Assembly: GCA_000091205.1 (NCBI GenBank)
Contig: AP006495.2
Reading direction: 5' to 3' (one strand)
From: Cyanidioschyzon merolae
Lineage: Eukaryota
DNA length: 64,000 bases
Positions 1,164-50,973 of this stretch are shown here, one piece after another. The notes beneath the pieces are model-generated. The model had not been told where the DNA came from. It did not search any database and saw only the letters and a list, made by a program, of their open reading frames with translations. The number at the start of each line of letters is the position of its first letter. Position 1 is the stretch's first letter. A program made the translations under genes and the position numbers.

Positions 1164-3080
1164 ATGTCGGAAGTGACACTGATGAACGGTGTAAACTCGG
1201 CCCTGGTCGACGAACTGGTTGAAGAACACGTACAAGTACGGAAAGAGTACGGATCGCAACCAAAGTGTACAGTGCTAGAGCGAGTTCGTCAAGCGCTGCA
1301 GCAGGTCGATGTCGATGAACTTTGCCATGGCGAGCTTGCTCGAACCAGAGTTGGCGAGCGAGCTCTTCGTGTTTTCCATAACGAGCCGAATCTTTTGATG
1401 GGTTTACGAAAAGCGGCTCTAGCGGATCTGATACAACGGGAGCAGAAACGCGAGCGTCTTGCAGCGAGCGGGGATATCCAGAACCCGGTGCCGTGGACGA
1501 AAGTGCTCGAGTATTTGCGGCGCCCGACGCTGCTTGAGGAGGCGCTCGAGCTACACCCGGACGCTTTCGGCCACTTTAAGCAGATGCTACGCTTGATTCT
1601 GGATGATGCGGCGGTCGCGCGTACGCTCAGTCAGGAGAAGGATGCGATTGTTGAAAGCGTAACGGAGTTGTATCGTTGTTGCACGCCGATCCAGGTCTGC
1701 TCGCCAACGACGCTTGATGGCGATCATCGAGTGATGAAGGAATCCCTAGGCTATGATTGCATCCCACTGACACGACTTGAGGCTGTTCTCTACTATCTGG
1801 AACGCTATCGGGGGCGTGACTACCACCCAGACCAGGCGGCGGCGGCGGCGGCAGCAGCAGCTGGTGGTGGTGGTGGTGGTGGTGGTGACTCGACCCCGGT
1901 CCGGCGCATCGAGGCTCCACGCAAAGCCGAGCGTGTCGCCCCCGACAGCGACGTCATCAGCAAGGAAGAGAAGAAAGCGCTCCAGATCTGTCACGATGCG
2001 CTGGGAATATCTCAGTACTCTCTGGAATTGCTTCGATCTTATGTGAATGATTGGTGGGAAAGACCTCCCTCTGTCCGAGAGGCCCTGCCTCAGGTAGTTC
2101 TGCTGGAGTCCACGCGAACCGCTTTGCAACCTGAACTCCAGTCCGCGATCAAGACGTATGCACAGGAGCGACTTGGGCTCTTGAAGCGGGTCCGCGCACT
2201 CATCGAGCGTGGCGACTGGGCAGGGGTCGCGGAAATTACGCCCGCACACGATGCGGAACATATATTACCCATGCCGGGGTTACGAATAGAAACGCCCAGG
2301 TCTCCCTGGATTCTGAATTTTGTGCTGCTGTACATTCAGGCGCTACACGAGTTATCACTTGGTGAGTATGTTTCTCGACTTGCCTCGATAGCCCTGAACT
2401 CGCCAATGCTGTGGGCGATGTTTCGGCGCCTCGTAAGATTTCTCGTTCTTGCAGAGTACGAACGGGGCGCTGTGGCGGCCGACTCCGTACCCCGTCAGTG
2501 CCAGGTGCACGAGCGCCTTCCGCAGGACTTGTGCGTTGCCATTGCGAGCGCCGTCTGTTCGAGGGCATTAGGGACGAACTCCCCGCTTCGCACTCGCCTC
2601 GAATCTGATCTAGCCATGCGGCACGAGTGGTTGCAAAAAAGCGCACTGCGCACCGAGGAGCCGCTTTGGCATGAACAATGCTTACTCATTAGTGAAATAG
2701 AGCAGATTAATGTATTAGAAATGCCAATCCTCGATGAGCGACAGCTCTCTGCCGCAATACGCACATCCTATTGCTCCAGACTGGGCTGGTTGCAAGCGCG
2801 CTTAAGTTACCTCCTGAGCGATTCCGAGGCACCAGAACCGCTTCTGGTATCAAATCGCCTCGAGCTGATCCCCGACGACTCGAGAGATCACCAGGGTGCC
2901 CTGCATACGTCCGACTCGGAAACGAGTGCCGACATTGACGAGGAATTAGTTTCCGTGATTATGGAGTTTACTGACGTGACGCGCGCAGGAGCCATCTTCA
3001 TTCTGCAAGAGTACATGCGCCAGAATCCCGGCGGACGCATGTCCAACGCTCAGGAGATCCTCGACCGCCTCTTTCCCTAA
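1164..3080 (+). CDS. Hypothetical protein with a poly-Ala/poly-Gly tract and a C-terminal UBA-like helical domain.
   Basis: Long ORF 1077..3080; the likely start is the ATG at 1164 (MSEVTLMNG). A GCG/GCA/GGT repeat at 1835-1890 encodes AAAAAAAAAGGGGGGGG. The C-terminal segment EFTDVTRAGAIFILQEYMRQNPGGRMSNAQEILDRLF resembles a UBA/CUE-like three-helix module. No family could be assigned from sequence alone. Confidence 0.5.
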   Translation: MSEVTLMNGVNSALVDELVEEHVQVRKEYGSQPKCTVLERVRQALQQVDVDELCHGELARTRVGERALRVFHNEPNLLMGLRKAALADLIQREQKRERLAASGDIQNPVPWTKVLEYLRRPTLLEEALELHPDAFGHFKQMLRLILDDAAVARTLSQEKDAIVESVTELYRCCTPIQVCSPTTLDGDHRVMKESLGYDCIPLTRLEAVLYYLERYRGRDYHPDQAAAAAAAAAGGGGGGGGDSTPVRRIEAPRKAERVAPDSDVISKEEKKALQICHDALGISQYSLELLRSYVNDWWERPPSVREALPQVVLLESTRTALQPELQSAIKTYAQERLGLLKRVRALIERGDWAGVAEITPAHDAEHILPMPGLRIETPRSPWILNFVLLYIQALHELSLGEYVSRLASIALNSPMLWAMFRRLVRFLVLAEYERGAVAADSVPRQCQVHERLPQDLCVAIASAVCSRALGTNSPLRTRLESDLAMRHEWLQKSALRTEEPLWHEQCLLISEIEQINVLEMPILDERQLSAAIRTSYCSRLGWLQARLSYLLSDSEAPEPLLVSNRLELIPDDSRDHQGALHTSDSETSADIDEELVSVIMEFTDVTRAGAIFILQEYMRQNPGGRMSNAQEILDRLFP

Positions 3081-3929
3081 GTCTTCCGAATATATCGCAT
3101 GCTTCAGAGGTACCCGGCATCGCTCGAAATTTCGATTATATCGCCTCTTTCTGAGACGCATTATACCGTTGAAGGTATGTGCGCTGCTGTCCCGGTGCGG
3201 CGCGAGGCGACCGCGTATCCCACGGTGTACGGCGGGTTCTCGCGACGGCGCAACCGCGTCGCGAGAAGATGAACACAGCGGATATGCTGCATATTCTTCC
3301 GGGTATCTGAATGCAACGACCGAGGCGTTTGTATCTGCTATATTTGCTAATACTGCAAATCATCAGCAGAGGCACACAGCATCTGGCTCCATTCCTCGTC
3401 GTTATCGTCGTCGCTGTTGTATTCAGGGCATGCAAGAGTGCAAAGCTTGCTCCGAGCATACATTGACGCCACCGTGCCTGTGTGTGACGAAGCGTCTACA
3501 TCCGATACGAAATTTTCTTCTACATGACGACCTGCTTCTTTTGATAACTGGTTCAGCTCTGGAGAGCTGCGTATGCCTTGAGCTCCTGGATCGGAAGCAC
3601 TGGCGCTTGCTCGAACTCGTTAAAGCGCGCTCGCCGATGCTCGTCAGCGGTGATGATGGTAAAACTTGCCAAGGGATAGCCAATAGTTCCAGATGCTTCC
3701 ATCATAGCTTTCTTGAGCTGAAAGCAACTCGCTATCCGCTGTTGGTTGAATATCCCTGCTGAAGATGCCAAGGCTAGCGCTTTCCGTGGATAGATTCGGA
3801 CGGGAGAGATAGCGGTTTGCAGTCGCAATGCGCTCGGTGAAACCAAGCACTCGGGTATTCGTCGGTTCAGTGCAAGCTCCACTGGCTACTCTATTGTCTG
3901 TCAGCGTGACGGACTCTTTAACTGATATC

Positions 3930-7748: not shown

Positions 7749-9050
7749 CTAATGCATCATCGCAGCAGCTTCTTGCATCACCAGTCTGGAGCCGGTGCCG
7801 CTGCCCACCACCACGGTGGAGGGGCCAGAGCTCGCCATCGGAGAGGCGACTGGACCCACTACCGTCGTTCCATCTGTAGAGGTCGTCGATCCACTCGAGG
7901 AAGATCCGTATGAGCTGCCGCTGCTGCCGGTAACGACGATGCCACCGCTGCTGCCGCTGCTGCCGCTGCTGCCGCTGCTGCCGGTAACGACGATGCCACC
8001 GCTGCTGCTGCTGCTGCTGCTGCTGCTTCCTGAAGACGGCTCCAGCTCAGTTTGAACCGGCTGCTGCTGGCCAGAGTTCTGGCTGTAAGGGTTGAACGGC
8101 TGCACCTGCTGCTTCGGGTAGTACTTCTTGTAATAACTCTTGTTGTAGTTGAACGGCCCAAAGACAGCAGTTGCGTTCCATCCGCTGGGAAAGTTGACCA
8201 CCGGATTCTTGTAGTAGCACCATGGAATATCCTGAGTCTGATACTTTTGCTGGAGGTACGGAGGCAGCAATATGGGATCGAAGCAGCAGTTACGCTCCAA
8301 GCACTGTTGCTCAGAAATGCCTGGGAAACCGCAGTTCTGGCGCTCCCGATAGGTGACGTTGCAGGTCATGAGCGGTTGATAGCAGAAGCCGTAGCTGTTG
8401 CCGAAGAAATTCACCTTCTGCTGCTTCTGCAGAGACTGACTGCTCGGGATAGAATCCTCATATGTCAGGTTCGGGTTCTGCTCCCAGCAGCAGCCCTGTG
8501 CCTCGCAATCCAGCTGGTTCATGTTATTCCAGCCGGAGTAGCATGGAACCTTGTAGTCGCCAACATTACAGCTCACATTGGGAAGTTGCTGCTGCGGTGG
8601 AGGCGAGTAGCCCACTGGAGCATAGCACCAGGGCCCGACCTCCGTCGGTGGAAGGGGATTCCAGCAGCCACCCTGCTGCAGACACTCTGCCGGAGTGATC
8701 TGCGGATAGCCGATCGCGACACGGTCGGCTGCGGAAATATTACAGATGGAGGTCGGCTCGTACGAGACGCAAACACCGTCTCCATTGTAGTTGAATCCCC
8801 AGTTCACCTGAGTCTGCCAGCAGCACTGGTAGTCGAAGCACTTCTGCTGGTCATTGCCAGCGTCACCACAGAGATAGATCGAGCAGGTTGTTCCAATATA
8901 GGTCGAGTTCAGGGAGCTCCACCGCTCCAGGTTGGAGTCCACCAGCATGGACGGCGCTGCGTTGACGCCGCCCATGGCGGCCACCATACACAGCAGCGCG
9001 AGCACTGCTGCTGCTGCCGCCGCTGAGATGAAAGAGAATAACTTACGCAT
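7749..9050 (-). CDS. Secreted multi-trefoil (P-domain) protein with a C-terminal Ser/Gly-rich mucin-like tail.
   Basis: 433-aa ORF. The N-terminus MRKLFSFISAAAAAAVLALLCMVAAMGGVNA is signal-peptide-like. Four Cys-rich modules are present; RERQNCGFPGISEQQCLERNCCFD...PWCYY fits the trefoil signature [KRH]-x2-C-x-[FYPSTV]-x3-[ST]-x3-C-x4-CC-[FYWH] exactly, and the others are CCW/GCW variants (CFDYQCCWQ, ECLQQGGCWNP, CEAQGCCWEQ). The tail SSGSSSSSSSSSGGIVVTGSSGSSGSS is encoded by GCT/CTG repeats at 7915-8035. Confidence 0.7.
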   Translation of the reverse strand: MRKLFSFISAAAAAAVLALLCMVAAMGGVNAAPSMLVDSNLERWSSLNSTYIGTTCSIYLCGDAGNDQQKCFDYQCCWQTQVNWGFNYNGDGVCVSYEPTSICNISAADRVAIGYPQITPAECLQQGGCWNPLPPTEVGPWCYAPVGYSPPPQQQLPNVSCNVGDYKVPCYSGWNNMNQLDCEAQGCCWEQNPNLTYEDSIPSSQSLQKQQKVNFFGNSYGFCYQPLMTCNVTYRERQNCGFPGISEQQCLERNCCFDPILLPPYLQQKYQTQDIPWCYYKNPVVNFPSGWNATAVFGPFNYNKSYYKKYYPKQQVQPFNPYSQNSGQQQPVQTELEPSSGSSSSSSSSSGGIVVTGSSGSSGSSGSSGGIVVTGSSGSSYGSSSSGSTTSTDGTTVVGPVASPMASSGPSTVVVGSGTGSRLVMQEAAAMMH

Positions 9051-9954
9051 GGGTAATTGATACGTTCTGTTACGAGATGTGCACTAGGTTTCCCTGTTGA
9101 ATGCAGAGGTTTCCCAAAACGATGAAACGAGCGCTTGCTTGATTCTTTGCAGCGTCACTTGCAGTTCACGATGTGCTGGTATGCGCGAGAGCGAACGACG
9201 AGCACTTCACGTACTGAGTCACAGACACTGAAAAAGAGGCGCTTCTCAAGAGATATGATTCGGCTTGCAGTCGATCGAGCAGATGAAACCGGTCGTTTTC
9301 GATCTGGATTCAGCTTCGCTCGTAAGTGCACACGAACACTCTCGACGACGAGAAAAAACAACACACGAATGCGGAAATCCCCGCGCGCTAAGTTGAGAAC
9401 GAATAATGAAAACGATTAGCACCCTTCGAAATGGAGTGCGCGCACGACGTGTATATGGTTCCAACGGTACCCAGATACACACACACACACCGATATATCG
9501 TCACGGGAGATCTGCGATCGAGAAGAGCACAGAGCCCAAGCGCTAAATGACGACCTGCTTAGAACGCTACACGCTACAACGAAATGCTAGATGCAGCAGC
9601 TGTGGAGAGCAGAGCGTGCACAGTTCCACACACACACTCACTCACGCGATGTTTAACGACAACAACAATACCTTCTCCGCATGAATTGCTGCAACATAGA
9701 CGGATTCATGCCGTGCAAGCGGTAGCATCACGAATGGGGCCGGCCGGTCCAAAACGTATCCATAGCAGGGCCGGCGTCACCAGTTTGGCCGCGTTGCAGT
9801 GCCGGCTGCGGCCCTGCGTCGGATCCAGCGCTGGGCCAAATGGCGTTACGCGCGATCGCGCGGGTGCGATGCGCAGCGTGCGATCGATCGCGAATGGCAT
9901 GCGCAGCGCCACCCGCGACTGGTGCGCGCAGCGCTGGAGCGGGATGATCATCTT

Positions 9955-10405
9955 TCACCTGAATGGTGTTCCAGTGCAGGTGCGTGTTATCAAATGCTTT
10001 TTCGGCGGTTTACGGCAATGCGTTCCAAGTGCGTTCGTTTTGGAGACATAGATAATCCAAGGGAAAGGTATGGACAGAAAATTCGGGGATCCTGGGTAAT
10101 GTCATCGCCAGTTGCGGGAGAGAAACAAAAAAATCCTGTTCTCCCTAAACACCGAGTGAAGAAGAGCAAGTGGCGAAGAGCTAGAAGAGGCAGAACGGGG
10201 ATCGAAGGATGCGGAAAGGATTTTTCGCCCTCTTTTGGCAGACGGCTACACCAGGCACCCAGTATCCCCGAATTTTCTGTCCATACCTTTCCCTCGGGTT
10301 TCTCTAGTTCTTCGCAGGAACGCACTTCGAATGCGTCTGCCGTAAACCGCGAAAAAGCATTTCATAACGCGCACCTCGGATGAAGCACAGTGCAGATAAA
10401 AGAGT
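9955..10405. mobile_element. Palindromic (MITE-like) element made of two inverted copies of the 5' end of the Fanzor-like family.
   Basis: The left arm 9960-10100 (aatgctttttcggcggtttacggcaatgcgttccaagtgcgttcg...ggaaaggtatggacagaaaattcggggatcctggg) and the right arm 10260-10400 read as reverse complements of each other; each arm is >=140 bp. Both arms match the 5' UTR plus the first codons of element A (15560-15650) and element D (58412-58520). Confidence 0.45.
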
Positions 10406-12320
10406 ATAACGACGCAGGTACCTGGCCTGCTGCACGAGTGCATCCCGTAGCGGGCAGATGCTGAACCCGTCGCAAGAACGCGACATGTGCCCGCTCGGCA
10501 TGCAGAGCAGAGACGATGCGTGCGCGGGTATCTGAATGCCACCGCGCGCACGGCGGCCCAGCGCAACGAACAGGCCTGCGAACATCATTTTCGTGGATCG
10601 ATGTACGTTCCATAAAGACGTGCTATGCTCGTGAGCACTGGCAGTCTACAATGCGTACTCAAAACCTTCACGATGAAAATCCCGACAAAGTTCCCGTGTT
10701 TGCAATACCGAATCGACGGATTGTTGTCATTGGCATCGATGAACCTGAATGGACCCCATCATAGAGGTGTCCGCTTCAGGGCGTGGAATTCAAGTCTCGT
10801 TTGCATGACACATGTTCTCGTTCGCTGTTCACGACGAATTACTGGGGAATTCGGGACCATGTGGCCTCAAGAACAATATCTCATTCGGAAGACGCCAGCT
10901 TTAGACGTATCCGCGGGTCAAGGTACGCAGTTGATTATCCTCTCACCATAAATGCCGGTCCGCTCGCACATGCTTCCTCGCATGCGCAGGTGTAGTTACA
11001 TGCCTTGGCACCGCTCGGTGCATATGCCAATTGGTTGTACAGCTGTCCTCGTGGCATGCACCTGCATCCCATGATGAGCGCTCGCTTCCCCGGCCAGAGA
11101 AGCGACCATGTGACTGGCATCTAAAACATCTGACCCTGAGTGCCCTATCTGGAGAATCGTGTCAACGCGCTGCAGAGGTGCGCGAAAACGCGGAGCGATC
11201 GCTGCGAATCGGGTCCTCGCAACAAACCACGTATTCCTCAGGCTCAGTCGTAGCGCTCTCTCGGGACGGAGTGTGCAACTTGCCAAGGTTGTGCGGGCAA
11301 GATGATTTCAAATGACTCGCACTGAGCGCCACTTTTTCCGAAATGAACGGGGACGACGACGCGAAGCGCTCAGGGAAGCGGTTACCGGATCAACCCGCAA
11401 AGACACAGCGTACCAAAGGTCCCGTCTCCTTCCCTTCCACAGTCTCGCTTGCTAGTTTATGTGAAGAGGGCGCTACTGCGTCATCAAATCTGGACCTGCT
11501 TGCGTCCTGCTCGAGCGTTCAGGGCTCAGAGGACTGCGACTGCGAAGGACACCAGCCGGAGTCAGAACGCCGCTTGAAGAGGCCTCGCCAGGCTCCTTGG
11601 GCAGCGGAGCCAGCGAACCAGCGCCGGCCACCGTTCGATCACGGCAACTCTGAATCTATACCACCAGCCGGTGTGCAGTCGCAGGGGACTTCGGCAAGCA
11701 ACGGAACTGATTCCTCGGAGCGCAAGTCGACGGAAGCAACCTGGAGTAGGCAGTCCGTCGACTGCAGCACCGCGGAGAAGCTCGCTGGAAACCTGTGTGC
11801 AAACCAAGTGAGCGCTGAGCGCAGCGGCCAATTCTATACGAAAGTGAATGAGCTTCTCCATGATTTACACAAGGAAAGAGTCAGCCGACAATGCCGCTCG
11901 CCCCATGAATCCTAAGACTGCCCTGCGACATGGACTGACCCTATGCGGCCTGGCGGATGCTGAAACCCTCTTTTGCTGATTTTATCCCATGAGGCTGCCT
12001 TTCAGAGACGAAGCGGGAACCTGGCAATAGGCTACGAGGCCTGCATGCTCTGACCCTGTCATCGACAGGCCCCGTGCTCACGAGCAATGTCGGTATCGTG
12101 GTATGCCGCCAGGGCCGTTTCACTTCATTGCAACCGCAACTCCAAGCGAGGATCATCGCTCGATACCTACAAGCCGAAGTAAAACAAGGCCAATCTTTTT
12201 ACGATGCAAGTGAAGCGTCTCCGGTGGATCCGCGACGCATTCGCTCGCGTAGCAGTATCCTTATACCGGAAGGCAGCCTTGCTCTTCCGACTCCAGTGTA
12301 AAATCGAGATCTCGGAACAT

Positions 12321-13745: not shown

Positions 13746-15655
13746 CCAGGTTGAAACTCTCGCCTGTTGCGGCACAAAACAGCAGGCGTGGTTATCGGAA
13801 CAGAAGGATTTCACGACTAGAGGGTAAATGGATGCTGCCATGCTGACGCCTCACGGTCTTTTTGGGCCGGCCACCTGCTATCGACTTCATCTTCTTCCCG
13901 TAAAATTCCACACTGAGAGGCTGCTCCACAAAGTTGGCTCTCGTCAGCTCTTTGGGTCTCTTCTCCATTACGACACATCTCCGTATAGTGATGGCGGCAT
14001 GAAAGTCTCGGGTCACAGCCTCCATGCGTTTCTTGCCGCCGCTGGTTGTACTCACCAGTGCAGGGTGTCCTCGAACTCATGCCCTCTGTGGCATTTTCTG
14101 TTCCGCCAGCGCTCCGTACTTTTCGATATCCGCAGGGCTCCTGTGAAACTTTTCCATCTCGAACCTCTGAAGCGTACACCTCAGTTCGTGGTGCACATAC
14201 GATGTTCGGAACTCTTATGTATGTATTGTGAAAAAACGGTGTGCATACTCTTTGTACGCTCTTGTCGACGGAGCTGGTGCACATCCTTTTTTATGCGTCA
14301 AGCGCCCTGTTCCGAGTGCTATCACGAGTCGTTGACTCTTGTCCTCCTTGAGGGCGCTCAACTTATTGAACAAGTTGGCGAATGCACGCTGCTTCCCACA
14401 GTCCAAGTCGATACGCTGACGAGCGCACCGGCGCTTGGTGTACTCTTTCCACATCTCCTCGGAATGAGCAACGCGAATTTTCACGGACTCCTGAAAAGCT
14501 TGAAAGCTCGCACCTCGGCTCGTCACATTGCGGAACTCCTTCTTCCTGACATCGTACTCCAGACTGATCTCCCTCGTGATGCCGTAAAGGGCTCTGGAGC
14601 CAATTGTCACCAAGTGCGACTTGATGTTGCGTATGGGAACGACATTGAAGCGCTTCTCTAGTAGGGAAGCGTTCCGTTTCTCCGACTCTTCATTTGCTTC
14701 CACATCCTGCTCCATTGCGGCCTTGCGATCGAGTTGCCGGTTCAGGACCACAAAATAGCACAGCATCAGAGGATAACTTTTCTTAATCTCTGATACCTTT
14801 TCTGCTGGGTTGACCAGCCCCAAGACCGCCCGATGCTCTTAAATAGCCACACGGATCGCAGAAGCTTCATTCGTGCTTCTGCGTGATGTCTTCTTGTCGA
14901 CGAACTCGATCCCCTGTTCGTGCTGGGGATCGTTCATGATGCCATTGATGATGGCCCATGTTCCTTTGCGAGAGAGGCCTGGGTAGAGTGGAAGAATGGA
15001 GCGTATCATGAAACGTTTGAGGTTCACGATCATGTGGTTCTTCAGGCCCATGAGGTACTTGATTGCCCCTCATCCGTAAACGCACAAGTTACCCTTGTAT
15101 CGAGTACTGTTGAAGCGGAATTCGGGGTGATATTCGTGGCGGGCGTGCACTCGCTCATTTCTCCGCGAGGTTTCCCACGTGCTAACCTTCAGGTGGCTGA
15201 TGAAGCTCTAGTCGTAAAATTCTTCCGGAACCTCGACTGTTTTGATGGCCGTCACGTCGCGATACATCTCCCTCGCCAAATGCATTAGTCCTGACGACGC
15301 CTATGTAATACTCTTGGAGTACGAATCGACATGGTTTCTGATAGCGTCTCGCAGCTTTTGCTTGTACGGATTTTTGATATATTTAAGAAGACAGGCTTTC
15401 ACCACAGTCTCGTTGTACTGTGGTCTTTCTTGCAGCCATTGACGTCGGACCTCCTGCCTTCGCTTCTTCGTCTTCTCCAGTCCCTCTCTGCTTGGGACTG
15501 TTTTTCGTTTTTTTCCGCTAGCCGGCGACACGAATCCTCCAGGATCCTCCACTTGCTTCTAGATAAGTATCGTTTTTTATTTTTGAAAACGAACCCACTT
15601 CGAACGCTTCTCCTATAAACCACGAAAAAGCACTCGAATACACTAATGTGAGGGT
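13700..15655 (-). mobile_element. Fanzor/TnpB-like (OMEGA family) transposable element, copy A, near full length (~1.9 kb).
   Basis: The 5' end (plus-strand 15575-15650) is homologous to the 5' ends of copies C, D and the 10 kb palindrome. The 3' tail (ccggtacgaaaaagactcagg...) is a diverged version of the tail shared by B, C and D. The internal ORFs encode an NLS-rich N-terminus and the RuvC-III motif. Confidence 0.5.
13792..15552 (-). pseudogene. Fanzor/TnpB-like RuvC nuclease gene, apparently frameshifted.
   Basis: Colinear minus-strand ORFs: 15301..15552 (MEDPGGFVSPASGKKRKTVPSREGLEKTKKRRQEVRRQ, basic NLS-like), then 14839..15051, 14215..14823 and 13792..14055 (GGKKRMEAVTRDFHAAITIRRC, the D-x-N-A-A-x-N-I RuvC-III signature). 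The 150 bp before the motif is split over three frames, including a Cys/His-containing stretch (RKCHRGHEF) in a third frame. This indicates frameshifts or unrecognised introns. Confidence 0.5.
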
Positions 15656-16663
15656 TGGCACCCTACCGAACTGAAAGACTATACTTTGCTACAACTCGAA
15701 CGCTAGTACATCTTGTACAGCAGAACACCACGCTAATGATCAGGATCGCGTTTTCCTCCATAGGCGGCATTTGCGTCATCTCTCATGCCTGCCAGATATC
15801 GACGTGCATATATCGACGACGCTATAGAAAGAAGGAAAAGAAAAGAACCACGTACTAGCAACTCAATTAGAAATTCTTTCTTTCTGTGCGGTATACATTA
15901 GAAAGGGGAGCAAGCTTTCCGAACACTCGAACGTTTATCTTCTAGGCGGAAGGTTTCTCGAGCCTGACGAGTCTGCCGCGCTCGTGTTTCATGCTCCTCC
16001 TGGTGGCGGGTGCTGTACTGAGCTCCGAGCAGCTGTCCGTAACGCAGGTTATTCTGGGACTTGGAGCCGGTAAGCGGCATCTGGATATCGCCCTAGTCGC
16101 GGTGACCTCTTTGTATATCGCTTCGCGCTGTCGCAGGCCGTACGCTTTTCTACACAGTTTGCTGCCTCCGAGAATGATAGTGCATCCCGAATCCGTATTG
16201 AATGAAGCACGACTCGAGCCTTGACTCTCGGTGGTGTGGCAACGCCTTCTGTCTCTATGCTGCATCCGCACCTGCGGTATGGGTGCCATTGCGGTTGCTC
16301 ACGGCAGGCTCGTCGGTCGATACAACGTTTGAAACGACCACTATATCCGAGAAGAAGTATGACTCATGGAACTTGGTAGCAGGGTGTGTTACAAGCGATG
16401 CTTCATGGCGCTAATGTCAAGCGTACACTCGGCAAAAAACACTGGCCTGTCAACGTTCTATCAATGAAAAATAAAAATCATTCGGTTGTTCGACCTGCGC
16501 AATTCTGCCCGTCTACTCGCGCCCAGCACCAAGCAGCAGCGCACACCACACGCACCTGCTTCGAGCGAGACTTTTACCAGGCCAAAACACTGGTCCGTTC
16601 TCTATGGCGAGTTTATTGGAGCGTGAAGAATTAGAGTGATAGAGACGTGGTACCCGAGCTCAG

Positions 16664-25795: not shown

Positions 25796-26794
25796 TGCGA
25801 CGACTCACGCCGGTGTTCTCTCCAAGGTAAAGGCCCTGGGAGCGCCCTCGTCCCGAAGACCAACTGGACCCGCACCGCTGAACGCACAAGTCGCCGCCTG
25901 AAGAAGGTACCTTGAGGGGCTGCTTTCGAATATCGAGACTGCTTTTGGAATGCGGTGCACAGCAGCTCTATCCAAAGCGGCAACTTTCCACAGTGCCAGC
26001 AGTTCAAGTGTATGTACAGCGCCGTCGACTAAAACAGGCACGGAACGGCGAACGCCCACAGTTCAAATACCGCTTCGGAAATGCAGCTTGGAATCAATTT
26101 TTCGTTGACGAAACGATTACGTTGATCTTGGATCCCAGACTGAACGATGAATTTTGGTATCCTGGTATGCGTTCATCGAGCTATACCCTACCTTCAAGTT
26201 CCATTACTTATACGTTGTTCCGGATGTACCGACTGTTTTGTACGTTCCACTGTGTACCAAGCCCGCCGTGAGCACCCCCAACAGCGATTATACTGCTGGT
26301 GCATATGTATGACGGAGACAGAGCGGCTTTGCCATTCCACTGCGGGCGTCGGATGGAGGAATGCTATGCCTGACACGGAATCAGGGCTAATGGTCATTCT
26401 GGGAACCTGAAATATGCGCAGAGAAACTTACTGCCTGCGGCAGCGCCAAGCGATATGCTAGGAGATAACTGCAACATGGGCGATGCCCAGACGCAGCCTA
26501 CCCGCTCCTAGTCCCAGAATAACCCGCGTTGCGGACGAGTCGCTCAGGTCTCATTACAACATCCGCCACTGGAGGGGACGCGAAGCACGGGCCTGGTAGA
26601 CAAGTTCGGCTCGCGGGACCTTCCGCCTGGGAGATAAGCTTTCGAGAATACGGAAAATTTTTCCCTTTCAAAGGTTACCATGAAGGTGGCACCAGAATGC
26701 TATCGAGTTGCTCGTTAATGGATATTTTCTGTTCTTTTTACACATTTGCAGCTAGTACGTCACGTGTTTCTGTTGTTACCACCACGGATACTTC

Positions 26795-27079: not shown

Positions 27080-27482
27080 CCTCAGGGCATTAGCACGTGC
27101 GTTCATTTAAAGAAATAAAAAATCCAAGCGATGAGCTGCGCTGTACACTGCAGAGGGTCGAGATGCAGAAGGGCCGGCAGAGCGCTCAGTGGATTGAAAA
27201 GTACGCAACGCTGACAGAGCAGAAACTGGCGCAAAGGGCATGAGTTTTAGCAATCCTTGCAATAATGCGTTCTAGTAGAGGCAAGAAGCGCATGGAGTTC
27301 GTGAACCGAACCTTGAACGCCGCCATCAATATCAGACGATTTGCGATGCTGGGGAGAGAAAGCCCAGGAGTTGACGCGAGCCAACGTTGTGGAGCAGCCT
27401 CTCAGGTTCAAAGTATACAAGGAAAATCTATAACCAGTAACATGCGGCCGGTCAAAAAAGGCTAGGAGGCGTCTGTGAGTGG
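27080..27482 (+). mobile_element. Fanzor-like family, copy B: short internally deleted derivative (~0.4 kb).
   Basis: 5' end tagcacgtgcgttca..taaagaaataaaaaatcca is homologous to the D/A/C 5' ends. ORF 27265..27465 encodes GKKRMEFVNRTLNAAINIRR (RuvC-III motif). 3' tail gcagcctctcagg...ccggtcaaaaaaggctaggaggcgtctgtgagtgg. Confidence 0.55.
27385..27482 (+). ncRNA. Candidate omega-RNA scaffold: the conserved 3' tail of copy B.
   Basis: Homologous to 58818-58934 (D) and 48958-49043 (C, minus strand). Contains the conserved hairpin agcct-ctc-aggct/aggtt and the terminal GGCGTCTGTGAGTGG block. Sequence diverges immediately downstream. Confidence 0.3.
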
Positions 27483-27823
27483 TTTCCAGGGTACCCTCTC
27501 GAGCCGATGCCCTCTGCGATATGGCAACGCCGACCTCTGTCCGTGCCATGACCGCACCGGCACTACAGGCGCTATTCCGGACATTCAGGCCATGCACTAC
27601 GCCCGAGGTAGAACGTCTGAAGCGGCCAGTATATCCGGGAAGGGTTAGAAGTTATGGAACTTGGGAGTAGAGCGCGCAATGATGGATGCTTCACTGTGCC
27701 CTGATATCGAGCGCCCAGTCGCAGAACGCTGGTCTAGGTCCAGGTTTCATGGAATTCAAGAATGCAACATTTCACGCCGACTCTGTCGGAAACCGCGCCC
27801 GCGCAATACCTCTTCGATAGCTT

Positions 27824-29295: not shown

Positions 29296-30535
29296 AACGG
29301 AACACGAACGTGCGACACAACGCGAACTCTTCCGCACTACACTACCTGCCGAGTGCTGGATGCGATCAGCCCTGCGATCGCTTGCGCGATATTGTACACT
29401 GCGCGGGGACGAATGCGTCAGCGCGCACGCAGATAGACACGTGCCGTTGATGCTGCACGATGCGCCACGTGGCGCGCTGTGCGATGCGATGACGCATCGA
29501 GTGCTCACCCATGCAGCGGTTGTAGCGGCGGCGCTGTGCCGTCTGCGCATGCGTCCGCTGATTCGGTGCTGGCCGGTGCTGTGCGCGCGTATCGCACTGG
29601 GAACGGCGCGCCGCTGGGGCTGCGGAGCGATACGCTCCTCGGTGCAGCGGGGAGAGATGGTCGCTCGCGTGGCGTCCATGTCGCTGTGTATGTGTCTGGA
29701 TGTTATCTGATTAGGGTGCAGCCTGTACAAACGTTTGATCCGTGTCCGTATGCCTTGCAGACGATCGTCTCGACCGTAGATAATGCAGCGTGAGCGAATA
29801 GTCGGCGGGAGACAAAGGCCTGTGCGACACTGGCGTTTCGCTTGTGAACAGAAATAGACGAAGCGCGATGCATGGCGGTACCGAACTGGTGTCGAATGGA
29901 CGCTCGGTTTCGCACAGAGCGATCCAGCATGGAACCATGTATGCTCGGTGTTTGGGTGTATGGAGAGTATGCGTGCTTCCGGAGCAACGATACGGAACCT
30001 TGGGATGCATGCTCGTCGCTGAACGATAGCACTCTTGGAGGTGCCGATCTTTTCTGGATACCTGACTTTTGATGTTGTCCGGATGCTCTCCAGAGACGTG
30101 TGCGTTGAACCTGTCCGATGTACTTGCCAGACCGGCTCGGCACGGGCCATGCACTCGCACTGACAGCAGAGTGTAGGGCAAAACGACTATAGAATCGGAC
30201 TCGAAGTGTTCCGTCTCCAAGGTTTCCGCCCCCCGATGTTTGGAGCGGTACTTCTAGGCGAAGCTCATCATGCATCACTTGCGGTAGCCCAAAAGGGCAA
30301 CGCGAAGCTGTCTCGCATGCTTGTGAGGCAGCAGCAAAGCCTCCAATGCCAAAGAAAAAGCATCCCCAGGAGAATCTGGTACCCAGGTGGGCGCTGAATC
30401 GATTCGGTCCAAGTCGTCTTAAGTGAGGCTCGCTTCGAATGGCGCATCTTGGAAGCGACCGGTACAACACGCCAATGGCTTGCGTGGTAAACCAAGAATC
30501 ACATTGGCAAATCCGATGGGATCTGGTTAGGCGTG

Positions 30536-32420
30536 CAGCGACGAATGCTGGAAGGGACATTCGGACGTGATCTTGCTAATATTACTTGTTTCTCTCACAG
30601 ACGTTCAACAAAAGAAACGGATCCTGCAGATTCGACAGACATAGCAGATACACTCTACACAAGCGCTGCTAACATGCGAATCAATGGGGCTTACCTCTAG
30701 CGTGCAGGCATTCTACGTTCAGCACTTTGGTGAACCAGTACTCTCTAGGGCCGTGCGCTAAACGTCGAGCACCCGAACAGAGCCTCTGCAACGCCGTCAA
30801 CGCGACAGTCGTCCGAGCAGTCCATTCCGCTCCATCCATGCGTGCCGCACCAAATACGACCAGACAAGCCACAGAATATGAATGCTCCGCCCAGGTGCGA
30901 CGGACGCTCCTGAGGCGACGCCCCCGGGGAAAGCAAAAAGCACGCCGAACAACACAGACCGGTGACTTCCGACTGAGACGCGAACGCTGCGTGCAGCAAG
31001 CACGGGTTCCCGCCGCACTCGGCACGACTGTATCCGGGCGAGACGCCACACCGCCTCCACAAGGGCATTCAAAGAGCGAGCAACATGCCGCTGGGCGTCT
31101 ACAGAAGACCAGCCAGCATGCCGACTGCATCAGCCACTGCGGCGATTCGGTCGAGCGGTCGCTTGCAACTCGCCAAACGCGCGAAATCCTTCTAGAGCCG
31201 GTCCTTCGTCGGTGCACGCTTCGTCGCTTCTCCTTCACACATGCCGCTGCCCTGCCCCGAGACAACGACGACGCCCATCACTGAAAATCAGCGGAGGAGT
31301 GCGCAGCTTGTCTGGCGTTCCCGCCCCTCATTCCGAGAACGTTGCTAGGCGTTCCAGACGCGGGGCTGCCAGCGGTCCGCGTCCCTCAGAGAGCCTGCGA
31401 TCCAACGTTCGTGGGGCACTGCAGCTGACGCTCGGCACCCCAGGGACAATACGAGTTCATTCTTCCAGGGCGTGGTAGCATCGGGAGTCGGGCGCGACGG
31501 ATGCCACCAGGCCTATCGACGAGCGGAGTGACGGCCCCAGGACCCGTGTGGACGCGCTGAGAGTGCCGTATCGAGCAGCGCGGGATGCGCTTCACGCTTC
31601 GCTCAGGGAGTACGCGAGACTCTGGATGACTCACGCGGACAGTCTATTGATCGAGTCCACGAGACAGCGCAATGGAGTCGCCGGCCGTTGCGGCCGTACG
31701 GGGCCAGTGAGCGTGCCCTCGCCAACATGTTCCATGACCACGAAGGGCAACTGGCCGATATATCGTTTCGCTCGATGGTGGTGATGGCGGTGGGCGTAGC
31801 GGCACCCGCTGGCACTGGGCGTGCCGGGGCACCCAAGCGCTGCACGCCTCTGCTCCCTCGACGAGCGTTTCCAACGAGTGCAGGACTCGATGCCATGCGA
31901 TTCCCGTGATTGGCTTTCCGACGACATCCACGCGTCACGGGCTCGGGTGCTCGCTGATCCCCAGGTAGCGAAGAAGCACATGAAGCAGAGACGGATGCAC
32001 GGCATGGTGTGCGGCAAGCCGATCGGACGTCAGCGGGCGAGACAATCGAAGACGACCGGCTCGCGATGTGGCGTGCTTGCACCACGAACAACGCGTGTGA
32101 GGAGTTTCTGCACGCGGTATCGAACGCGTCGTTCAACACCCGGACCTGCCTGGTGCATCCGGTGCGTCCAGGAGCTCTGTGTTGAGCGGACATTCAAGGG
32201 AACGTTTGTTTCGTAACGCAGCCGAGGTACTGTACGAAAGGCGCTGCAGTGTTTTGATGAACAGAAATCCGTGCCCAGGCGAGAGCGAGAACGGGATATT
32301 CGCCTAGCGTCATTCACTGGCAGGTTATGGTTCAGCGATCCGGATAGACGTCAGAAGTGCATCGATAACGGTTTGCCGGGGCATTTACTGAGCGACCATG
32401 GTGCTCCATGGTTCAACATC
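30536..32420. repeat. Copy 1 of a ~1.9 kb near-identical direct duplication (copy 2 at 39358..41242).
   Basis: Colinear identity read directly from the sequence, with a constant offset of 8822 bp. Translated ORFs in the two copies differ at only a few residues. Boundaries are where the flanks diverge (agcgacgaat... on the left, ...ggtgctccatg.ttcaacat on the right). No convincing coding content. Confidence 0.85.
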
Positions 32421-35639: not shown

Positions 35640-36110
35640 TGTACCGCTATCACGATGGTAATACTTGCCTGGGGCTGGTCGATTCTTGTTGTAGGTCTGG
35701 AGCGAGGCGTGATCGTCATGTCGCTGGACCAAAATGCGATTCCAATGGTAAGACTTGCCTGGGGCTAAACGATTCTCGTTATGTGTCTAGACCGAGGCGT
35801 GATCGTCATGTCGCTGGACCAAAATGCGATTCCAATGGTAAGACTTGCCTGGGGCTAAACGATTCTCGTTATGTGTCTAGACCGAGGCGTGATCGTCATG
35901 TCGCTGGACCAAAATGCGATTCCAATGGTAAGACTTCCCTGGGGCTGGTCGATTCTCGTTATGTGTCTAGACCGAGGCGTGATCGTCATGTCGCTGGACC
36001 AAAATGCGATTCCAATGGTAAGACTTGCCTGGGGCTAAACGATTCTCGTTATGTATACGGAGCGAGGCGTGATCGTCATGTCGCTGGCTTTCGTACCGAT
36101 CACGCATCCA
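35640..36110. repeat. 90-bp minisatellite, about 5.2 units.
   Basis: Unit tgtcgctggaccaaaatgcgattccaatggtaagacttgcctggggctaaacgattctcgttatgtgtctagaccgaggcgtgatcgtca. Full units start at 35719, 35809, 35899 and 35989, with partial units at both ends. It produces artefactual repeat ORFs on both strands. Confidence 0.85.
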
Positions 36111-39263: not shown

Positions 39264-39357
39264 TTCGGAGGGTTAGCATTGCGGCACTAGGCGAGAACGG
39301 CGCTTGTATGCGCTGCGCTTCGCGGCCGCAGGTTCGTGTTTCCTGGTGTTTATACGT

Positions 39358-41242
39358 AGAGCGACGAATTCTGGAAGGGACATTCGGACGTGATCTTGCT
39401 AATATTACTTGTTTCTCTCACAGACGTTCAACAAAAGAAACGGATCCTGCAGATTCGACAGACATAGCAGATACACTCTACACAAGCGCTGCTAACATGC
39501 GAATCAATGGGGCTTACCTCTAGCGTGCAGGCATTCTACGTTCAGCACTTTGGTGAACCAGTACTCTCTAGGGCCGTGCGCTAAACGTCGAGCACCCGAA
39601 CAGAGCCTCTGCAACGCCGTCAACGCGACAGTCGTCCGAGCAGTCCATTCCGCTCCATCCATGCGTGCCGCATCAAATACGACCAGACAAGCCACAGAAT
39701 ATGAATGCTCCGCCCAGGTGCGACGGACGCTCCTGAGGCGACGCCCCCGGGGAAAGCAAAAAGCACGCCGAACAACACAGACCGGTGACTTCCGACTGAG
39801 ACGCGAACGCTGCGTGCAGCAAGCACGGGTTCCCGCCGCACTCGGCACGCCTGTATCCGGGCGAGACGCCACACCGCCTCGACAAGGGCATTCAAAGAGC
39901 GAGCGACATGCCGCTGGGCGTCTACAGAAGACCAGCCAGCATGCCGACTGCATCAGCCACTGCGGCGATTCAGTCGAGCGGTCGCTTGCAACTCGCCAAA
40001 CGCGCGAAATCCTTCTAGAGCCGGTCCTTCGTCGGTGCACGCTTCGTCGCTTCTCCTTCACACATGCCGCTGCCCTGCCCCGAGACAACGACGACGCCCA
40101 TCACTGAAAATCAGCCGAGGAGTGCGCAGCTTGTCTGGCGTCCCCGCCCCTCATTCCGAGAACGTTGCTAGGCGTTCCAGACGCGGGGCTGCCAGCGGTC
40201 CGCGTCCCTCAGAGAGCCTGCGATCCAACCTTCGTGAGGCACTGCAGCTGACGCTCGGCACCCCAGGGACAATACGAGTTCATTCTTCCAGGGCGTGGTA
40301 GTATCGGGAGTCGGGCGCGACGGATGCCACCAGGCCTATCGACGAGCGGAGTGACGGCCCCAGGACCCGTGTGGACGCGCTGAGAGTGCCGTATCGAGCA
40401 GCGCGGGATGCGCTTCACGCTTCGCTCAGGGAGTACGCGAGACTCTGGATGACTCACGCGGACAGTCTTTTGATCGAGTCCACGAGACAGCGCAATGGAG
40501 TCGCCGGCCGTTGCGGCCGTACGGGGCCAGTGAGCGTGCCCTCGCCAACATGTTCCATGACCACGAAGGGCAACTGGCCGATATATCGTTTCGCTCGATG
40601 GTGGTGATGGCGGTGGGCGTAGCGGCACCCGCTGGCACCGGGCGTGCCGGGGCACCCAAGCGCTGCACGCCTCTGCTCCCTCGACGAGCGTTTCCAACGA
40701 GTGCAGGACTCGATGCCATGCGATTCCCGTGGTTGGCTTTCCGACGACATCCACGCGTCACGGGCTCGGGTGCTCGCTGATCCCCAGGTAGCGAAGAAGC
40801 ACATGAAGCAGAGACGGATGCACGGCATGGTGTGCGGCAAGCCGATCGGACGTCAGCGGGCGAGACAATCGAAGACGACCGGCTCGCGATGTGGCGTGCT
40901 TGCACCACGAACAACGCGTGTGAGGAGTTTCTGCACGCGGTATCGAACGCGTCGTTCAACACCCGGACCTGCCTGGTGCTTCCGGTGCGTCCAGCAGCTC
41001 TGTGTTGAGCGGACATTCGAGGGAACGTTTGTTTCGTAACGCAGCCGAGGTACTGTACGAAAGGCGCTGCAGTGTTTTGATGAACAGAAATCCGTGCCCA
41101 GGCGAGAGCGAGAACGGGATATTCGCCTAGCGTCATCCACTGGCAGGTTATGGTTCAGCGATCCGGATAGACGTCAGAAGTGCATCGATAACGGTTTGCC
41201 GGGGCATTTACTGAGCGACCATGGTGCTCCATGATTCAACAT
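39358..41242. repeat. Copy 2 of the ~1.9 kb direct duplication.
   Basis: See copy 1; same orientation. Confidence 0.85.
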
Positions 41243-41847: not shown

Positions 41848-42275
41848 CACCAGCAGCACCATCTCACAACGCATGGACGATGGAAGTATATCTGTCCCAT
41901 GATCACTGCAGCGCAGCAGTGCGCTGTACAAACAGCACCATCTCACAACGCATGGACGATGGAAATATATCTTGACCCATGATCACTGCAGCGTAGCAGT
42001 GCGCTGTACAAACAGCATCGCCAGTGCGATTGGACGATGGAAATATATCTTGACCCATGATCACTGCAGCGTAGCAGTGCGCTGTACAAACAGCATCGCC
42101 AGTGCGATTGGACGATGGAAATATATCTTGACCCATGATCACTGCAGCGTAGCAGTGCGCTGTACAAACAGCACCATCTCACAACGCATGGACGATGGAA
42201 ATATATCTGACCCATGATCACTGCAGCGTAGCAGTGCGCTGTACAAACAGCATCGCCAGTGCGATTTTTTACATC
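41848..42275. repeat. 78-bp minisatellite, about 5.5 units, with two alternating variants of a ~16-bp sub-block.
   Basis: Unit gacgatggaaatatatcttgacccatgatcactgcagcgtagcagtgcgctgtacaaacagca followed by either ccatctcacaacgcatg or tcgccagtgcgattg. Read directly from the sequence. Confidence 0.85.
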
Positions 42276-48216: not shown

Positions 48217-48957
48217 TCACTAGTTTCTGAAAACTGGTACTCCGATAAGGTGAAGTAAGATTGTCGAAGCAGTAACTGTTCATTGCAGGCTTTGCTGCGC
48301 CGCCTCCAGCGCCGATCTGCAACGCTTGTCCAGTGATTTAGAAATGGACGGTCAGCGCGATTTGCTTTGTGTTTCATAGACGCTTACCTTGATCGGGGAT
48401 CCCAGATTGCGGTACGGATGGTACCATTCAGAGATGCGTCCAGCATTTCCATTCCAAGTTCCATAACCCATACTTCTTCTTTGATGTGCTGGTGGTTTTT
48501 TACGTTCTGTCGTGCGCCGAGTGCCTGCCCTGATCGTCCGTGATAGCGCCTGTGCCGCCAGTTTGGATGCATCACAGCGACAGAACCACTTTGCCATACC
48601 GCAGAGGGCGTCGGCTCGGGGCGCGGTTCACTCGCCACAGAATCGAGCCTCAAATTCGATTCGTGCTCAGCCGGTTTGTGGATGCAGACTTGCCTTCGGT
48701 GCACTGCGCGTTGGAGAAATTTGGCTGTTAGGATGTATCCTGGGGGCCGCTTCTCTCTTGCGCGATCGTGTGTGAAATTCGTGTGCGGCTCGCAACACGG
48801 ACTTGTGCTTGGCACCCACCAGTGGGTAGGTGCCCAAAGCGCTGGGCCGACCCGCAATGAACGGTAGTTCAGCGAGAGGCGTTGCGCAAAGGCATGCTCG
48901 CAGCGTCGGCACGCTCAACGCAGCGAAAACGTACCGCTCCAATGAGGTATATGAAGA

Positions 48958-49497
48958 CCCATCAGCAGACGCCTGCCAGCCTTTTCCGACCAGCCGCATG
49001 CTATCGATTTCGGCTTCTCCCTATACATTTCGAGCCTGAGAGGCTACCCCACAGAGGGCGTGCGCGCCAGCTCCCCGGGGCTCCTCTCCGGCGCAGCACA
49101 TCTCCTGATGCTCGTTGCAGCATGAAAGTCTCGGTTCACGAATTCCATTCGTTTATTGCCTCCGTTTGCACTCACCAATGCAAGGAGCACTCGAACTCGT
49201 GCCCTCTGCGCCAATACAACCTCGTCATCGTTCCGTCTCGCAAACACCCTTGCTCGCCTATCTCGCCTTTTCTTCGTCTTCTTCTTCATCGTCGAATGCT
49301 CTACTTTGCTCGATGGTTGGCAAGAGGATAATTTTTTCGTTTGCTTCAAGCATCCGGAAATAACGGCCATCAAGGATCACCCATTTCCACATCCATACCT
49401 TTCCCTTGAATTTTTCGTTTTTTGAAAATGAACGCACTTCGAACGCGTCTGCTATGAGCCTCGACAGAGCATTTGCTGACGCTCGCCCGCTGCGGCT
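48958..49497 (-). mobile_element. Fanzor-like family, copy C: short internally deleted derivative (~0.54 kb).
   Basis: ORF 49044..49373 fuses the N-terminal homology KTKKRRDRRARVFARRNDDEVV (cf. copy A KTKKRRQEVRRQWLQERPQYNETVV) to NKRMEFVNRDFHAATSIRRC (RuvC-III). Plus-strand 49414-49497 is the reverse complement of the family 5' end. The 3' tail (minus strand) tgtggggtagcctctcaggctcg...gaaaaggctggcaggcgtctgctgatggg is ~85% identical to copy D. Confidence 0.55.
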
Positions 49498-49512
49498 TGG
49501 ACTACAATTCAT

Positions 49513-50973
49513 GTGACAAACGGGAACGAGCGTCGATCACCGGCACCGAGCGCGGCGCGTGTTAGGCGCGTGTCCGGCGCGTGTCCGGCGCGTGTCCGGC
49601 GCGTGTCCGGCACGCGTGCAGCGCGCAGACACCTGCCGTCGACGCGGGCATCGGTGAGCATCACGCTCATCACAGGAACGGTAACCGTGGCATGCGCGCT
49701 CCTGCTTGCTCCAGAGCAGGGCTTTGGACTCCTGGTCATCCAAAAGCTGGGAGCTTGTTGCGTGGTTGTCGCAACCACGGTTGTTCGGCACGTTTGGCGC
49801 CAGCAAAGGCCAGGAACAATGGCCTTCGTTCAGCTCGCTTCGAGGAGAACCGGCGGACGAAACCAGTTCCGGGGTCGCGCTGTGGATAGAACGTTAGCGG
49901 GAGGTGTCAGACACCCGAGCGAACGTGGAACTGTAAAGTTTTCCTCAGGTCTGAGGCTGCAACTTACACCGGGGTTCCCTCATTCCAAGGACACTGGGAG
50001 ATCGGGCCGTAGCGACCGGGAGCCTGCATTTTCCGGGGATGCGGATGCGCTGCGCCTTCCTGCCTTGACCAGGGCAGCGCTATCCTTAGCGCCAGCGCTT
50101 GTAACTGTCAGCGCGCAAGACACGTCTGTATCGAGATCAAAAGCTGGAGGCGCCTCTGGAACAAGTCCGATGAATAGTTCTGCGGTCGCATCGTGGCCCA
50201 GAACTGAGCTCACAACCGCAGCGTTTCGATATACGTTCTATTCACTCGGTTCTAACGATAACTTGTACAAGCAAACGCTACAAGCGGAGATACAATCCAA
50301 ATTAATCCACGTGGGCACGGAGGGCGCAGCCCTGATTGTTCGAGTGGATCCAAGCTATGTAGCCTGGGTAGATGACGCACAAATTACAGAGCCGCGAATG
50401 CCCGGGACGCTCGCGGACAGGGTTGGCGGTCGACCGCTGTCCGCCGATGCGCATCTCAGGGGCGGCTCACCAGGGCCGTACCACGCCACAGAATCGATGC
50501 GCAGTGAATTCGTTGCAGATGTCGAACATGGAACTGGAAGGAAACCACATTTCGACCGAGCAGCGTACAAGCGCCTTGACGAGAACCAACGATCGTCGCG
50601 TCCATGCCCTCGGGCGTTGACGTCACCGTACATTGCGGGCGGTGCGCTCCCTTCGGATGAAGAGGGACTCGCTCAAAGATGCCGACTGTATATCGAAGGC
50701 GAAGTTACGCACGCTCTCCCATGTAATGCATCATTCCATGGCCCAAGTCCGCCCGAGTGTTTTATTGTGCGAGTTTTACGAAGGTGCCAGAACGTGTTTC
50801 GACAGTTTGCGGGAAGCGAACCATGCAGCGCATCTCCAACCACCATCGAGGAGTCTGTCGAGGATTTCTGCATTATGTGTTCAGCCCAGAGAGGGAGTGC
50901 AGAGTGCCGCTCTTTTCCTGCGACGCTGGGTACCGGCATTAACGTGGCGTTGAATGCGCTTAGCGCTACATAG
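49513..50973 (+). CDS. Hypothetical ORF; only the C-terminal ~260 codons look protein-like.
   Basis: The first ~200 codons run through the 11-bp microsatellite and Arg-rich GC-skewed sequence. From MNSSAVASWPRTELTT onward the composition is balanced, with a Cys-rich C-terminus. No family recognised. Confidence 0.2.
   Translation: MTNGNERRSPAPSAARVRRVSGACPARVRRVSGTRAARRHLPSTRASVSITLITGTVTVACALLLAPEQGFGLLVIQKLGACCVVVATTVVRHVWRQQRPGTMAFVQLASRRTGGRNQFRGRAVDRTLAGGVRHPSERGTVKFSSGLRLQLTPGFPHSKDTGRSGRSDREPAFSGDADALRLPALTRAALSLAPALVTVSAQDTSVSRSKAGGASGTSPMNSSAVASWPRTELTTAAFRYTFYSLGSNDNLYKQTLQAEIQSKLIHVGTEGAALIVRVDPSYVAWVDDAQITEPRMPGTLADRVGGRPLSADAHLRGGSPGPYHATESMRSEFVADVEHGTGRKPHFDRAAYKRLDENQRSSRPCPRALTSPYIAGGALPSDEEGLAQRCRLYIEGEVTHALPCNASFHGPSPPECFIVRVLRRCQNVFRQFAGSEPCSASPTTIEESVEDFCIMCSAQRGSAECRSFPATLGTGINVALNALSAT
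49555..49600. repeat. (GGCGCGTGTCC)4 microsatellite, 11-bp unit.
   Basis: Direct read. Confidence 0.75.

Follow-up and report, generated by a model that had tools for sequence, protein, structure and literature searches.

The closest described relative of the sequence considered here is CMe-1A, a Fanzor1 element of Cyanidioschyzon merolae with about 150 copies that individually show about 80% identity to the 3169-bp consensus (Bao and Jurka, 2013, Mobile DNA 4:12; PMC3627910). The element encodes a 734-aa Fanzor1 protein and has neither terminal inverted repeats nor a recognisable target-site duplication, and its 5' 635 bp correspond to a second element, TE-N2_CMe (PMC3627910). Fanzor derivatives devoid of the coding region have been described in Spizellomyces, where "ghost" loci of about 550 nt comprise both transposon ends and the omega-RNA region, without an Fz ORF; these loci have 30-nt inverted repeats, and their omega-RNA has been demonstrated (Saito et al., 2023, Nature 620:660; PMC10432273).

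The window analysed here, a stretch of 64,000 nucleotides, is part of chromosome 13 of C. merolae 10D (four of its proteins match BAM81072, BAM81057, BAM81068 and BAM81056 exactly), and was mapped onto the CMe-1A consensus taken from Additional file 2 of PMC3627910. The window contains intron-less genes, including those for isopropylmalate dehydrogenase, 6-phosphogluconate dehydrogenase, a PI3/4-kinase, a RING-WD40 protein and a trefoil protein. A kinetoplastid origin, suspected from the scarcity of introns and the location of most genes on one strand, is rejected by the exact protein matches. There is a single 5S rRNA gene at 62308-62428 (+; 94.3 bits), and no tRNA genes were found in the 64 kb. 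The window also contains a direct segmental duplication of 1.9 kb with 98.7% identity (30524-32419 and 39347-41242, about 8.8 kb apart) and two tandem arrays with units that are 90-97% identical, one at 35655-36087 (~90 bp period), which overlaps ORFs on both strands, and the other at 41854-42266 (~79 bp).

The subject of this analysis is an imperfect palindrome that sits in the 2.3-kb spacer between the trefoil-domain gene (7749-9050, -) and CMM208C (11343-11915, +). GC-rich imperfect short repeats (CGCG..GCGCAGCG, three copies; period 14 in Tandem Repeats Finder) are located at 9852-9934, immediately to the left of the palindrome.

The palindrome and the two CMe-1 fragments that compose it

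The palindrome at 9948-10409 is real and far above chance. Its arms form an ungapped inverted repeat in which 9951-10097 (left arm) pairs with 10257-10403 (right arm) in the register x + y = 20354, as seen with the repeat finder and in the complementarity profile and, for the right arm, also with BLAST. Applied to the window, the repeat finder delineates two blocks of ungapped reverse complementarity in identical register, namely, 86 nt with 71% identity (9951-10036 with 10318-10403) and 44 nt with 93% identity (10054-10097 with 10257-10300), which are separated by a less similar stretch at about 10037-10053. The 44-nt patch surrounds the start codon and includes a perfect match at 10061-10090. 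When the region is compared to the window by BLAST, 9978-10097 matches 10376-10257 with 84.4% identity over 122 bp (E 2e-29). As a single strand, 9948-10409 is predicted to fold into one long imperfect hairpin, with an energy of -132 kcal/mol as DNA and -238 kcal/mol as RNA (z-scores of -16.9 and -16.4, respectively), and none of 100 shuffled sequences folds equally well. These results confirm what a previous, sequence-only reading of this DNA had proposed, that is, arms of at least 140 bp (9960-10100 and 10260-10400) that are reverse complements of each other, an internal divergent patch within them, and a long hairpin in the single-stranded form.

Both arms are 5' fragments of a short, non-autonomous derivative of CMe-1, in opposite orientations. 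A profile search with nhmmer places the left copy at 9948-10218 on the + strand (E 2e-49, model positions 5-271) and the right copy at 10217-10409 on the - strand (E 1.4e-32, model positions 2-197). In BLAST comparison with the published consensus, the left arm (9953-10218, +) corresponds to CMe-1A 793-1045 and the right arm (10408->10221, -) to CMe-1A 786-969, with an E value of 1.5e-18 in each case; the consensus ATG is at position 906. The arms accordingly map around this ATG, and the earlier description of each arm as the 5' UTR of the family followed by a degenerate ORF start holds. In the left copy, the 5' UTR is followed by a dead ORF start and by about 120 bp that once coded for the N-terminus; the ATG of this copy, at 10070, reads MDRKFGDPG*, with the stop at 10097-10099, and the ATG of the right copy (10284->10282, -) reads MDRKFGDTGCLV*, with a TAG stop at 10248->10246. 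The coding content of the palindrome is limited to these two dead ORF starts, of 9 and 12 codons, and the palindrome is therefore a non-coding family fragment rather than an autonomous member of the family. None of the ORFs that overlap the palindrome is an annotated C. merolae protein. The arm-specific diagnostic states are TTTACGGCA and GGACAGAAAATTCGGGGAT.

The left and right copies meet directly at 10217/10218, with an overlap of about 36 bp (10202-10238) between their alignment envelopes. Because of this direct contact, the ~160 bp between the paired arms, previously taken for a unique segment, are the diverged continuation of both copies, with no foreign DNA between the two profile alignments. 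The unpaired centre proper (~70 bp, about 10146-10216, +) is part of the left copy only, which it continues over model positions about 198-271 in the short-family alignment and profile; nothing in the right copy corresponds to it. Both outer ends of the palindrome coincide with the left terminus of the short family, TTAY..CTTTCAC. Model positions 272-601 are absent from both arms, and the short-family profile detects no homologous sequence within 600 bp on either side. The missing 3' half comprises the part coding for the Fanzor C-terminus and the right end, and is kept by every other non-autonomous copy. Given that the 5' ends are outside and the truncated bodies meet centrally, the arrangement is convergent (tail-to-tail). 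Thus, of the suggestion that the locus is a head-to-head rearrangement of two left ends, the presence of two inverted left ends of one family stands, but the head-to-head orientation does not, the left ends being directed outward.

CMe-1 copies in the window and the short derivative without an ORF

When the window is compared to itself, diverged sequences related to the arms are detected at 15.6 kb, 49.3 kb and 58.4 kb. Copy A (13835-16383, -) is a near full-length CMe-1A that is aligned by BLAST with consensus positions 84-1949 and 2395-3091. It has a single reading frame with six in-frame stops and the motifs EFRTS and RDFHAAITIRR, and its translation agrees with the published CMe-1 protein, which starts with MEKEVEDPGGPVSPAAGKKRKTV... 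An in-frame internal deletion of 445 bp (consensus 1950-2394) in this copy has eliminated the RuvC-I DPG aspartate. The same deletion is carried by P0001, an intact environmental ORF of 562 aa. A Fanzor variant with an incomplete catalytic site has therefore spread to two or more loci and, in at least one case, has stayed open.

Public relatives of the copy A frame include intact proteins with the motifs DPGNTN, DEFRTS and NRDFNAAINIRR, and in an alignment of 34 family proteins, the residues D484, E656 and R724-D725-x-N727-x-A729-x-N731 are invariant. Searches of Pfam and PDB with a single element protein or with a shallow profile yielded no matches; only the 34-sequence profile reached the solved Fanzor1 structures, those from Parasitella (9cf0, 2e-22), Spizellomyces (8gkh, 3.8e-13) and Guillardia (9cer, 1.9e-8). 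The AlphaFold model of P0002, built from a shallow alignment, has a mean pLDDT of 30.6 and is unusable.

The other copies in the window are of the short type. Copies B and C are complete ~600-bp derivatives, located at 58390-58973 (+; model 2-600, profile E 1.3e-160) and at 48924-49526 (-; model 2-598, profile E 6.9e-158), respectively. In BLAST comparison with the consensus, copy B (58414-58926, +) corresponds to positions 810-1070 and 2855-3083, and copy C (49521->48965, -) to positions 790-969 and 2809-3084. Copy D is partial: the profile aligns 27097-27484 (+) with model positions 87-161 and 306-562, and BLAST aligns 27122-27475 (+) with consensus 2728-3083.

Copies B and C and both arms of the palindrome all begin at about 786-793 of the consensus rather than at position 1. 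The arms, which start at about 786, therefore belong to a ~600-bp deletion derivative. This derivative joins consensus positions about 786-1070 (5' UTR and N-terminal codons) to about 2810-3140 (RuvC-III coding part and 3' tail), starts with TTAY/TTGY..CTTTCAC and ends with ..CGTTTCAYTGAC. Its profile HMM comprises 601 positions, and the arms align with 10 independent ~600-bp copies. Outside the window, the short derivative was found in loci L025, L026/L078, L034, L041, L046, L088, L106 (12719-13325) and L136 (14773-15372). Public metagenomes were scanned once with the conserved core motif GCRTTCNAAGTGNGTTC, and among the matches listed, which comprise 120 DNA stretches, at least nine are real family copies from hot-spring samples, with the same 5'-plus-3' structure in at least seven; the other stretches (all but 9 of the 120 listed) have no homology to the family and presumably are chance matches from unrelated metagenomes. 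At the junctions of nine complete short copies, there are no inverted termini and no duplicated flank. A quick RNAalifold run on the 3' 185 nt of the short family gave a consensus fold of -5.3 kcal/mol, with negligible covariation and no supported omega-RNA-like structure. The derivative is not described by Bao and Jurka (2013), who mention only CMe-1A and TE-N2_CMe.

Three pieces of TE-N2 were identified by BLAST, at 26103-26737 (+; consensus 1-636), 27747->27498 (-; consensus 9-255) and 48380-48652 (+; consensus 11-287). The repeat that flanks copy A ("fam2") was considered as the long terminal inverted repeats of a carrier element, and this was rejected: the repeat is actually the 5' 635 bp of CMe-1A, i.e., TE-N2_CMe. 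Only copy D has TE-N2 on both sides in inverted orientation, a diverged pair that was missed by the repeat finder. Inverted 5' fragments of TE-N2_CMe (consensus about 10-255/287) are located directly downstream of the 3' ends of the short copies D and C, and another inverted fragment lies directly upstream of the long copy in L139 (7409-7593). In a family described as lacking inverted repeats, the bracketing of copy D by TE-N2 might represent either a rearrangement that recurs or a composite not described before.

Conservation within the 5' UTR is highest in the block GCGTTCGAAGTGCGTTC, found at 10020-10036 of the window and at the same position in every family copy (consensus about 863-879). 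It is a direct repeat of GCGTTC with 5-nt spacing and contains the palindrome TTCGAA; the block is a candidate for a promoter motif of the element or for a site of protein binding. Some intact copies, such as that in L005 (744-2387; P0008), have the conserved 5' UTR and the Fanzor ORF in one frame (MVDAFEPRSFSKIKIMNTKFEDPGG...), and therefore some members of the family may translate the "UTR" as an N-terminal extension.

Origin of the inverted pair

The similarity between the arms was assessed against that between other members of the family, with the two arms and nine other short copies aligned to the same model (55 pairs). The full ~197-bp arms are only 71% identical when gaps are counted and 74-80% identical when they are not, which qualifies the sequence-only reading; over 197 columns, the value is 74%, and the left arm is equally close (74%) to the copies in L025, L034 and L046. 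In 187 gap-free columns, the identity between the arms is 73.8%, compared with a mean of 67.7 +/- 3.9% and a maximum of 75.3% for unrelated pairs. When model positions 121-150 are left out, the arms are 69.4% identical vs 67.8% for the family, and within these positions, the identity between the arms is 0.93-1.0 vs 0.56-0.71 for family pairs. The near-identity patch at 10054-10097 is thus the sole segment in which the arms are more similar to each other than unrelated copies are, and the perfect 30-nt match that it contains is in a family-variable segment; the best 44-nt windows between unrelated copies show 91-93% identity. In the conserved core (model 33-152), the arms are 84% identical, the highest value among the 55 pairs, with a mean of 73.3 +/- 3.7% and a best value of 82% for unrelated copies. 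An arm identity of 84% was considered as proof of duplication and rejected as such, this value being family-typical when unrelated copies are compared. The arms have six rare states in common, compared with a maximum of five for other pairs, and they are sisters in the neighbour-joining tree with 50% bootstrap. Arm identity follows family conservation, at 90% in conserved, 75% in intermediate and 61% in variable columns (Fisher p 0.002; Spearman rho 0.25, p 4e-4).

We lean towards the interpretation that the palindrome is a non-functional relic produced from two separate old, truncated left ends of the short CMe-1 derivative, placed tail-to-tail, and one deletion. Under this scenario, two separate old family copies would have come to lie tail-to-tail, and a single deletion, possibly at short microhomology around 10202-10238, would then have removed both 3' halves. 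The ~44-bp patch around the start codons might have been homogenised later by short-tract gene conversion or might reflect a common sub-lineage, and the locus would have drifted neutrally afterwards, its hairpin potential being a probable passive consequence of the conservation of the 5' region in the family rather than a selected feature. Two separate truncated insertions, the outcome against which the sequence-only reading had weighed its own proposal, make the better-supported reading, the arms outside the patch being as unlike as unrelated copies. That the arm differences fall at family-variable positions favours two source elements, since uniform decay after a duplication would erode all columns alike; differences in mutation rate from site to site could mimic this correlation. 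Against two source copies, the arms are nearest relatives in the tree, with the top core identity and the most rare states in common; the perfect match at 10061-10090 needs an extra assumption, be it gene conversion or a common sub-lineage; and three events are needed (two insertions and one deletion), with both end points of the deletion inside the elements. The same sisterhood, core identity, rare states and perfect match within a variable segment count in favour of a tentative alternative to which we give appreciably less credence, an ancient fold-back (inverted) duplication of a single short CMe-1 copy, the arms of which have since diverged about as much as the family has. Here, DNA synthesis (in replication, gap repair or a transposition intermediate) would have switched strand near model positions 271/197 and copied the 5' ~200 bp back to the left terminus, replacing the 3' half. 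One such event would suffice for the a-b-c-d-c'-b'-a' layout with an asymmetric centre (left copy to model position 271, right copy to 197) and no filler DNA, and the overlap of the alignment envelopes at the junction is compatible with microhomology. A fold-back duplication does not, however, sit well with arms that outside model positions 121-150 differ like unrelated copies, nor with the concentration of their differences at lineage-variable positions, which is not what uniform decay predicts; the bootstrap of the sisterhood is only 50%, and an in-situ chromosomal event is not expected to stop exactly at the left terminus of the element.

The palindrome is present on contigs from all 10 environmental strains (10/10), with 97.9-99.9% identity over 751 bp and no indel. 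Among 11 sequences of the orthologous locus, there are 19 variable sites, 14 in the 458-bp palindrome vs 5 in 293 bp of flank. None of the 14 variable sites in the palindrome has a variable pairing partner, so that there is no compensatory change among them; at seven sites, one of the alleles disrupts or weakens a pair, and at three sites, one of the alleles creates a pair. The lack of compensatory variants, together with the pair-breaking alleles, points to neutral drift rather than maintenance of the stem.

A functional hairpin, giving rise to small RNAs that target the family or serving as a structured regulatory or cruciform element within a divergent promoter region, would be suggested by the strong predicted fold (z about -17), the retention in all 10 strains and the position between two divergently oriented genes, but we consider it highly improbable. 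The complementarity equals family-level similarity, polymorphism is denser in the palindrome than in the flanks, several alleles break pairs with no compensating change, an Rfam scan of the palindrome locus gave no match, and retention among strains that differ by only 1-2% says little. The production of siRNA against the family, as envisaged in the sequence-only reading, is not supported, as C. merolae has been reported to lack Argonaute and Dicer (PMC11376382). The further proposal, that the whole 460-bp unit moves as a foldback or MITE-like element with the two left ends as terminal inverted repeats and with further genomic copies, is unlikely. The coincidence of both outer ends with the family left terminus fits such an element, as do the recurrent inverted juxtapositions of family parts (the TE-N2 fragments beside copies C and D and in L139). 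Nevertheless, a sample of about 20 distinct 5' ends of the family, taken from the window and from L004-L005, L025-L106 and L136-L142 (roughly two dozen Cyanidioschyzon-like metagenome contigs, from the same strain and related ones), includes no second inverted left-end pair, and all matches to the palindrome itself come from the orthologous locus. The flanks contain no direct repeat indicative of a target-site duplication (the left flank ends with ...GAGCGGGA and the right flank begins with GACGCAGG...). The unit is also devoid of the right end that all other non-autonomous copies retain. The family lacks terminal inverted repeats, both as reported and as seen here. Tandem Repeats Finder detected no tandem subrepeats in the arms within 9948-10409. 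It is similarly unlikely that the palindrome with its two left ends is, rather than a chance juxtaposition, a scar of the element's own propagation mechanism or a copy of a small foldback subfamily mobilised via two left ends. A scar of this kind could have arisen by aberrant fold-back repair of a break beside the left end (the transposon-adjacent site) during Fanzor-guided homing or, alternatively, by self-priming of a single-stranded transposition intermediate. If true, such a scar or subfamily would be the first structural clue to the movement of CMe-1-type Fanzor1 elements, which have neither terminal inverted repeats nor a transposase.

Comparison with known systems

The palindrome is a decayed, rearranged member of an already published Fanzor1 family, with no sign of selection or activity. 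It matters little because the repeat family was described in 2013, the Fanzor1 class is well characterised and the locus is decayed and non-coding. Its value is mainly in annotation: the analysis accounts for a conspicuous palindrome of 460 bp on chromosome 13 of C. merolae and argues against the tempting siRNA reading in an organism reported to lack RNAi components. The multi-copy ~600-bp derivative is a somewhat more useful by-product; it could help to locate the cis-acting ends of CMe-1 and its guide-RNA region, both of which it may mark.

Both arms are homologous to CMe-1A consensus positions about 786-1045, that is, the 5' UTR and the ORF start, and the host, C. merolae, is the same. Like the copies in the window, CMe-1A is old and lacks terminal inverted repeats and a clear target-site duplication, and the flanks of the palindrome also differ from each other. 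However, whereas CMe-1A encodes a Fanzor1 protein (RuvC-like D...E...RD), the palindrome cannot encode a Fanzor protein and lacks a right end. The ghost loci of Spizellomyces resemble the short family (copies B and C and at least nine metagenome loci) in being multi-copy and ORF-less and in keeping the 5' and 3' Fanzor1 ends, but unlike them, the short family has no inverted repeats, and its consensus 3' fold is unsupported. The palindrome differs from the ghost loci in the loss of the 3' part, whereas copies B and C retain both ends.

Two inverted copies of one transposon end are also present in maize "double Ds" and in rearranged P-element derivatives, and foldback (FB) elements of the Drosophila type have arms made of tandem subrepeats. 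As in these cases, the same end occurs twice in inverted orientation at the C. merolae locus, resulting in a long imperfect palindrome. Unlike them, the palindrome lacks tandem subrepeats, a target-site duplication and signs of mobility or, among the about 20 sampled 5' ends, of further copies, and its arms look independently diverged rather than duplicated.
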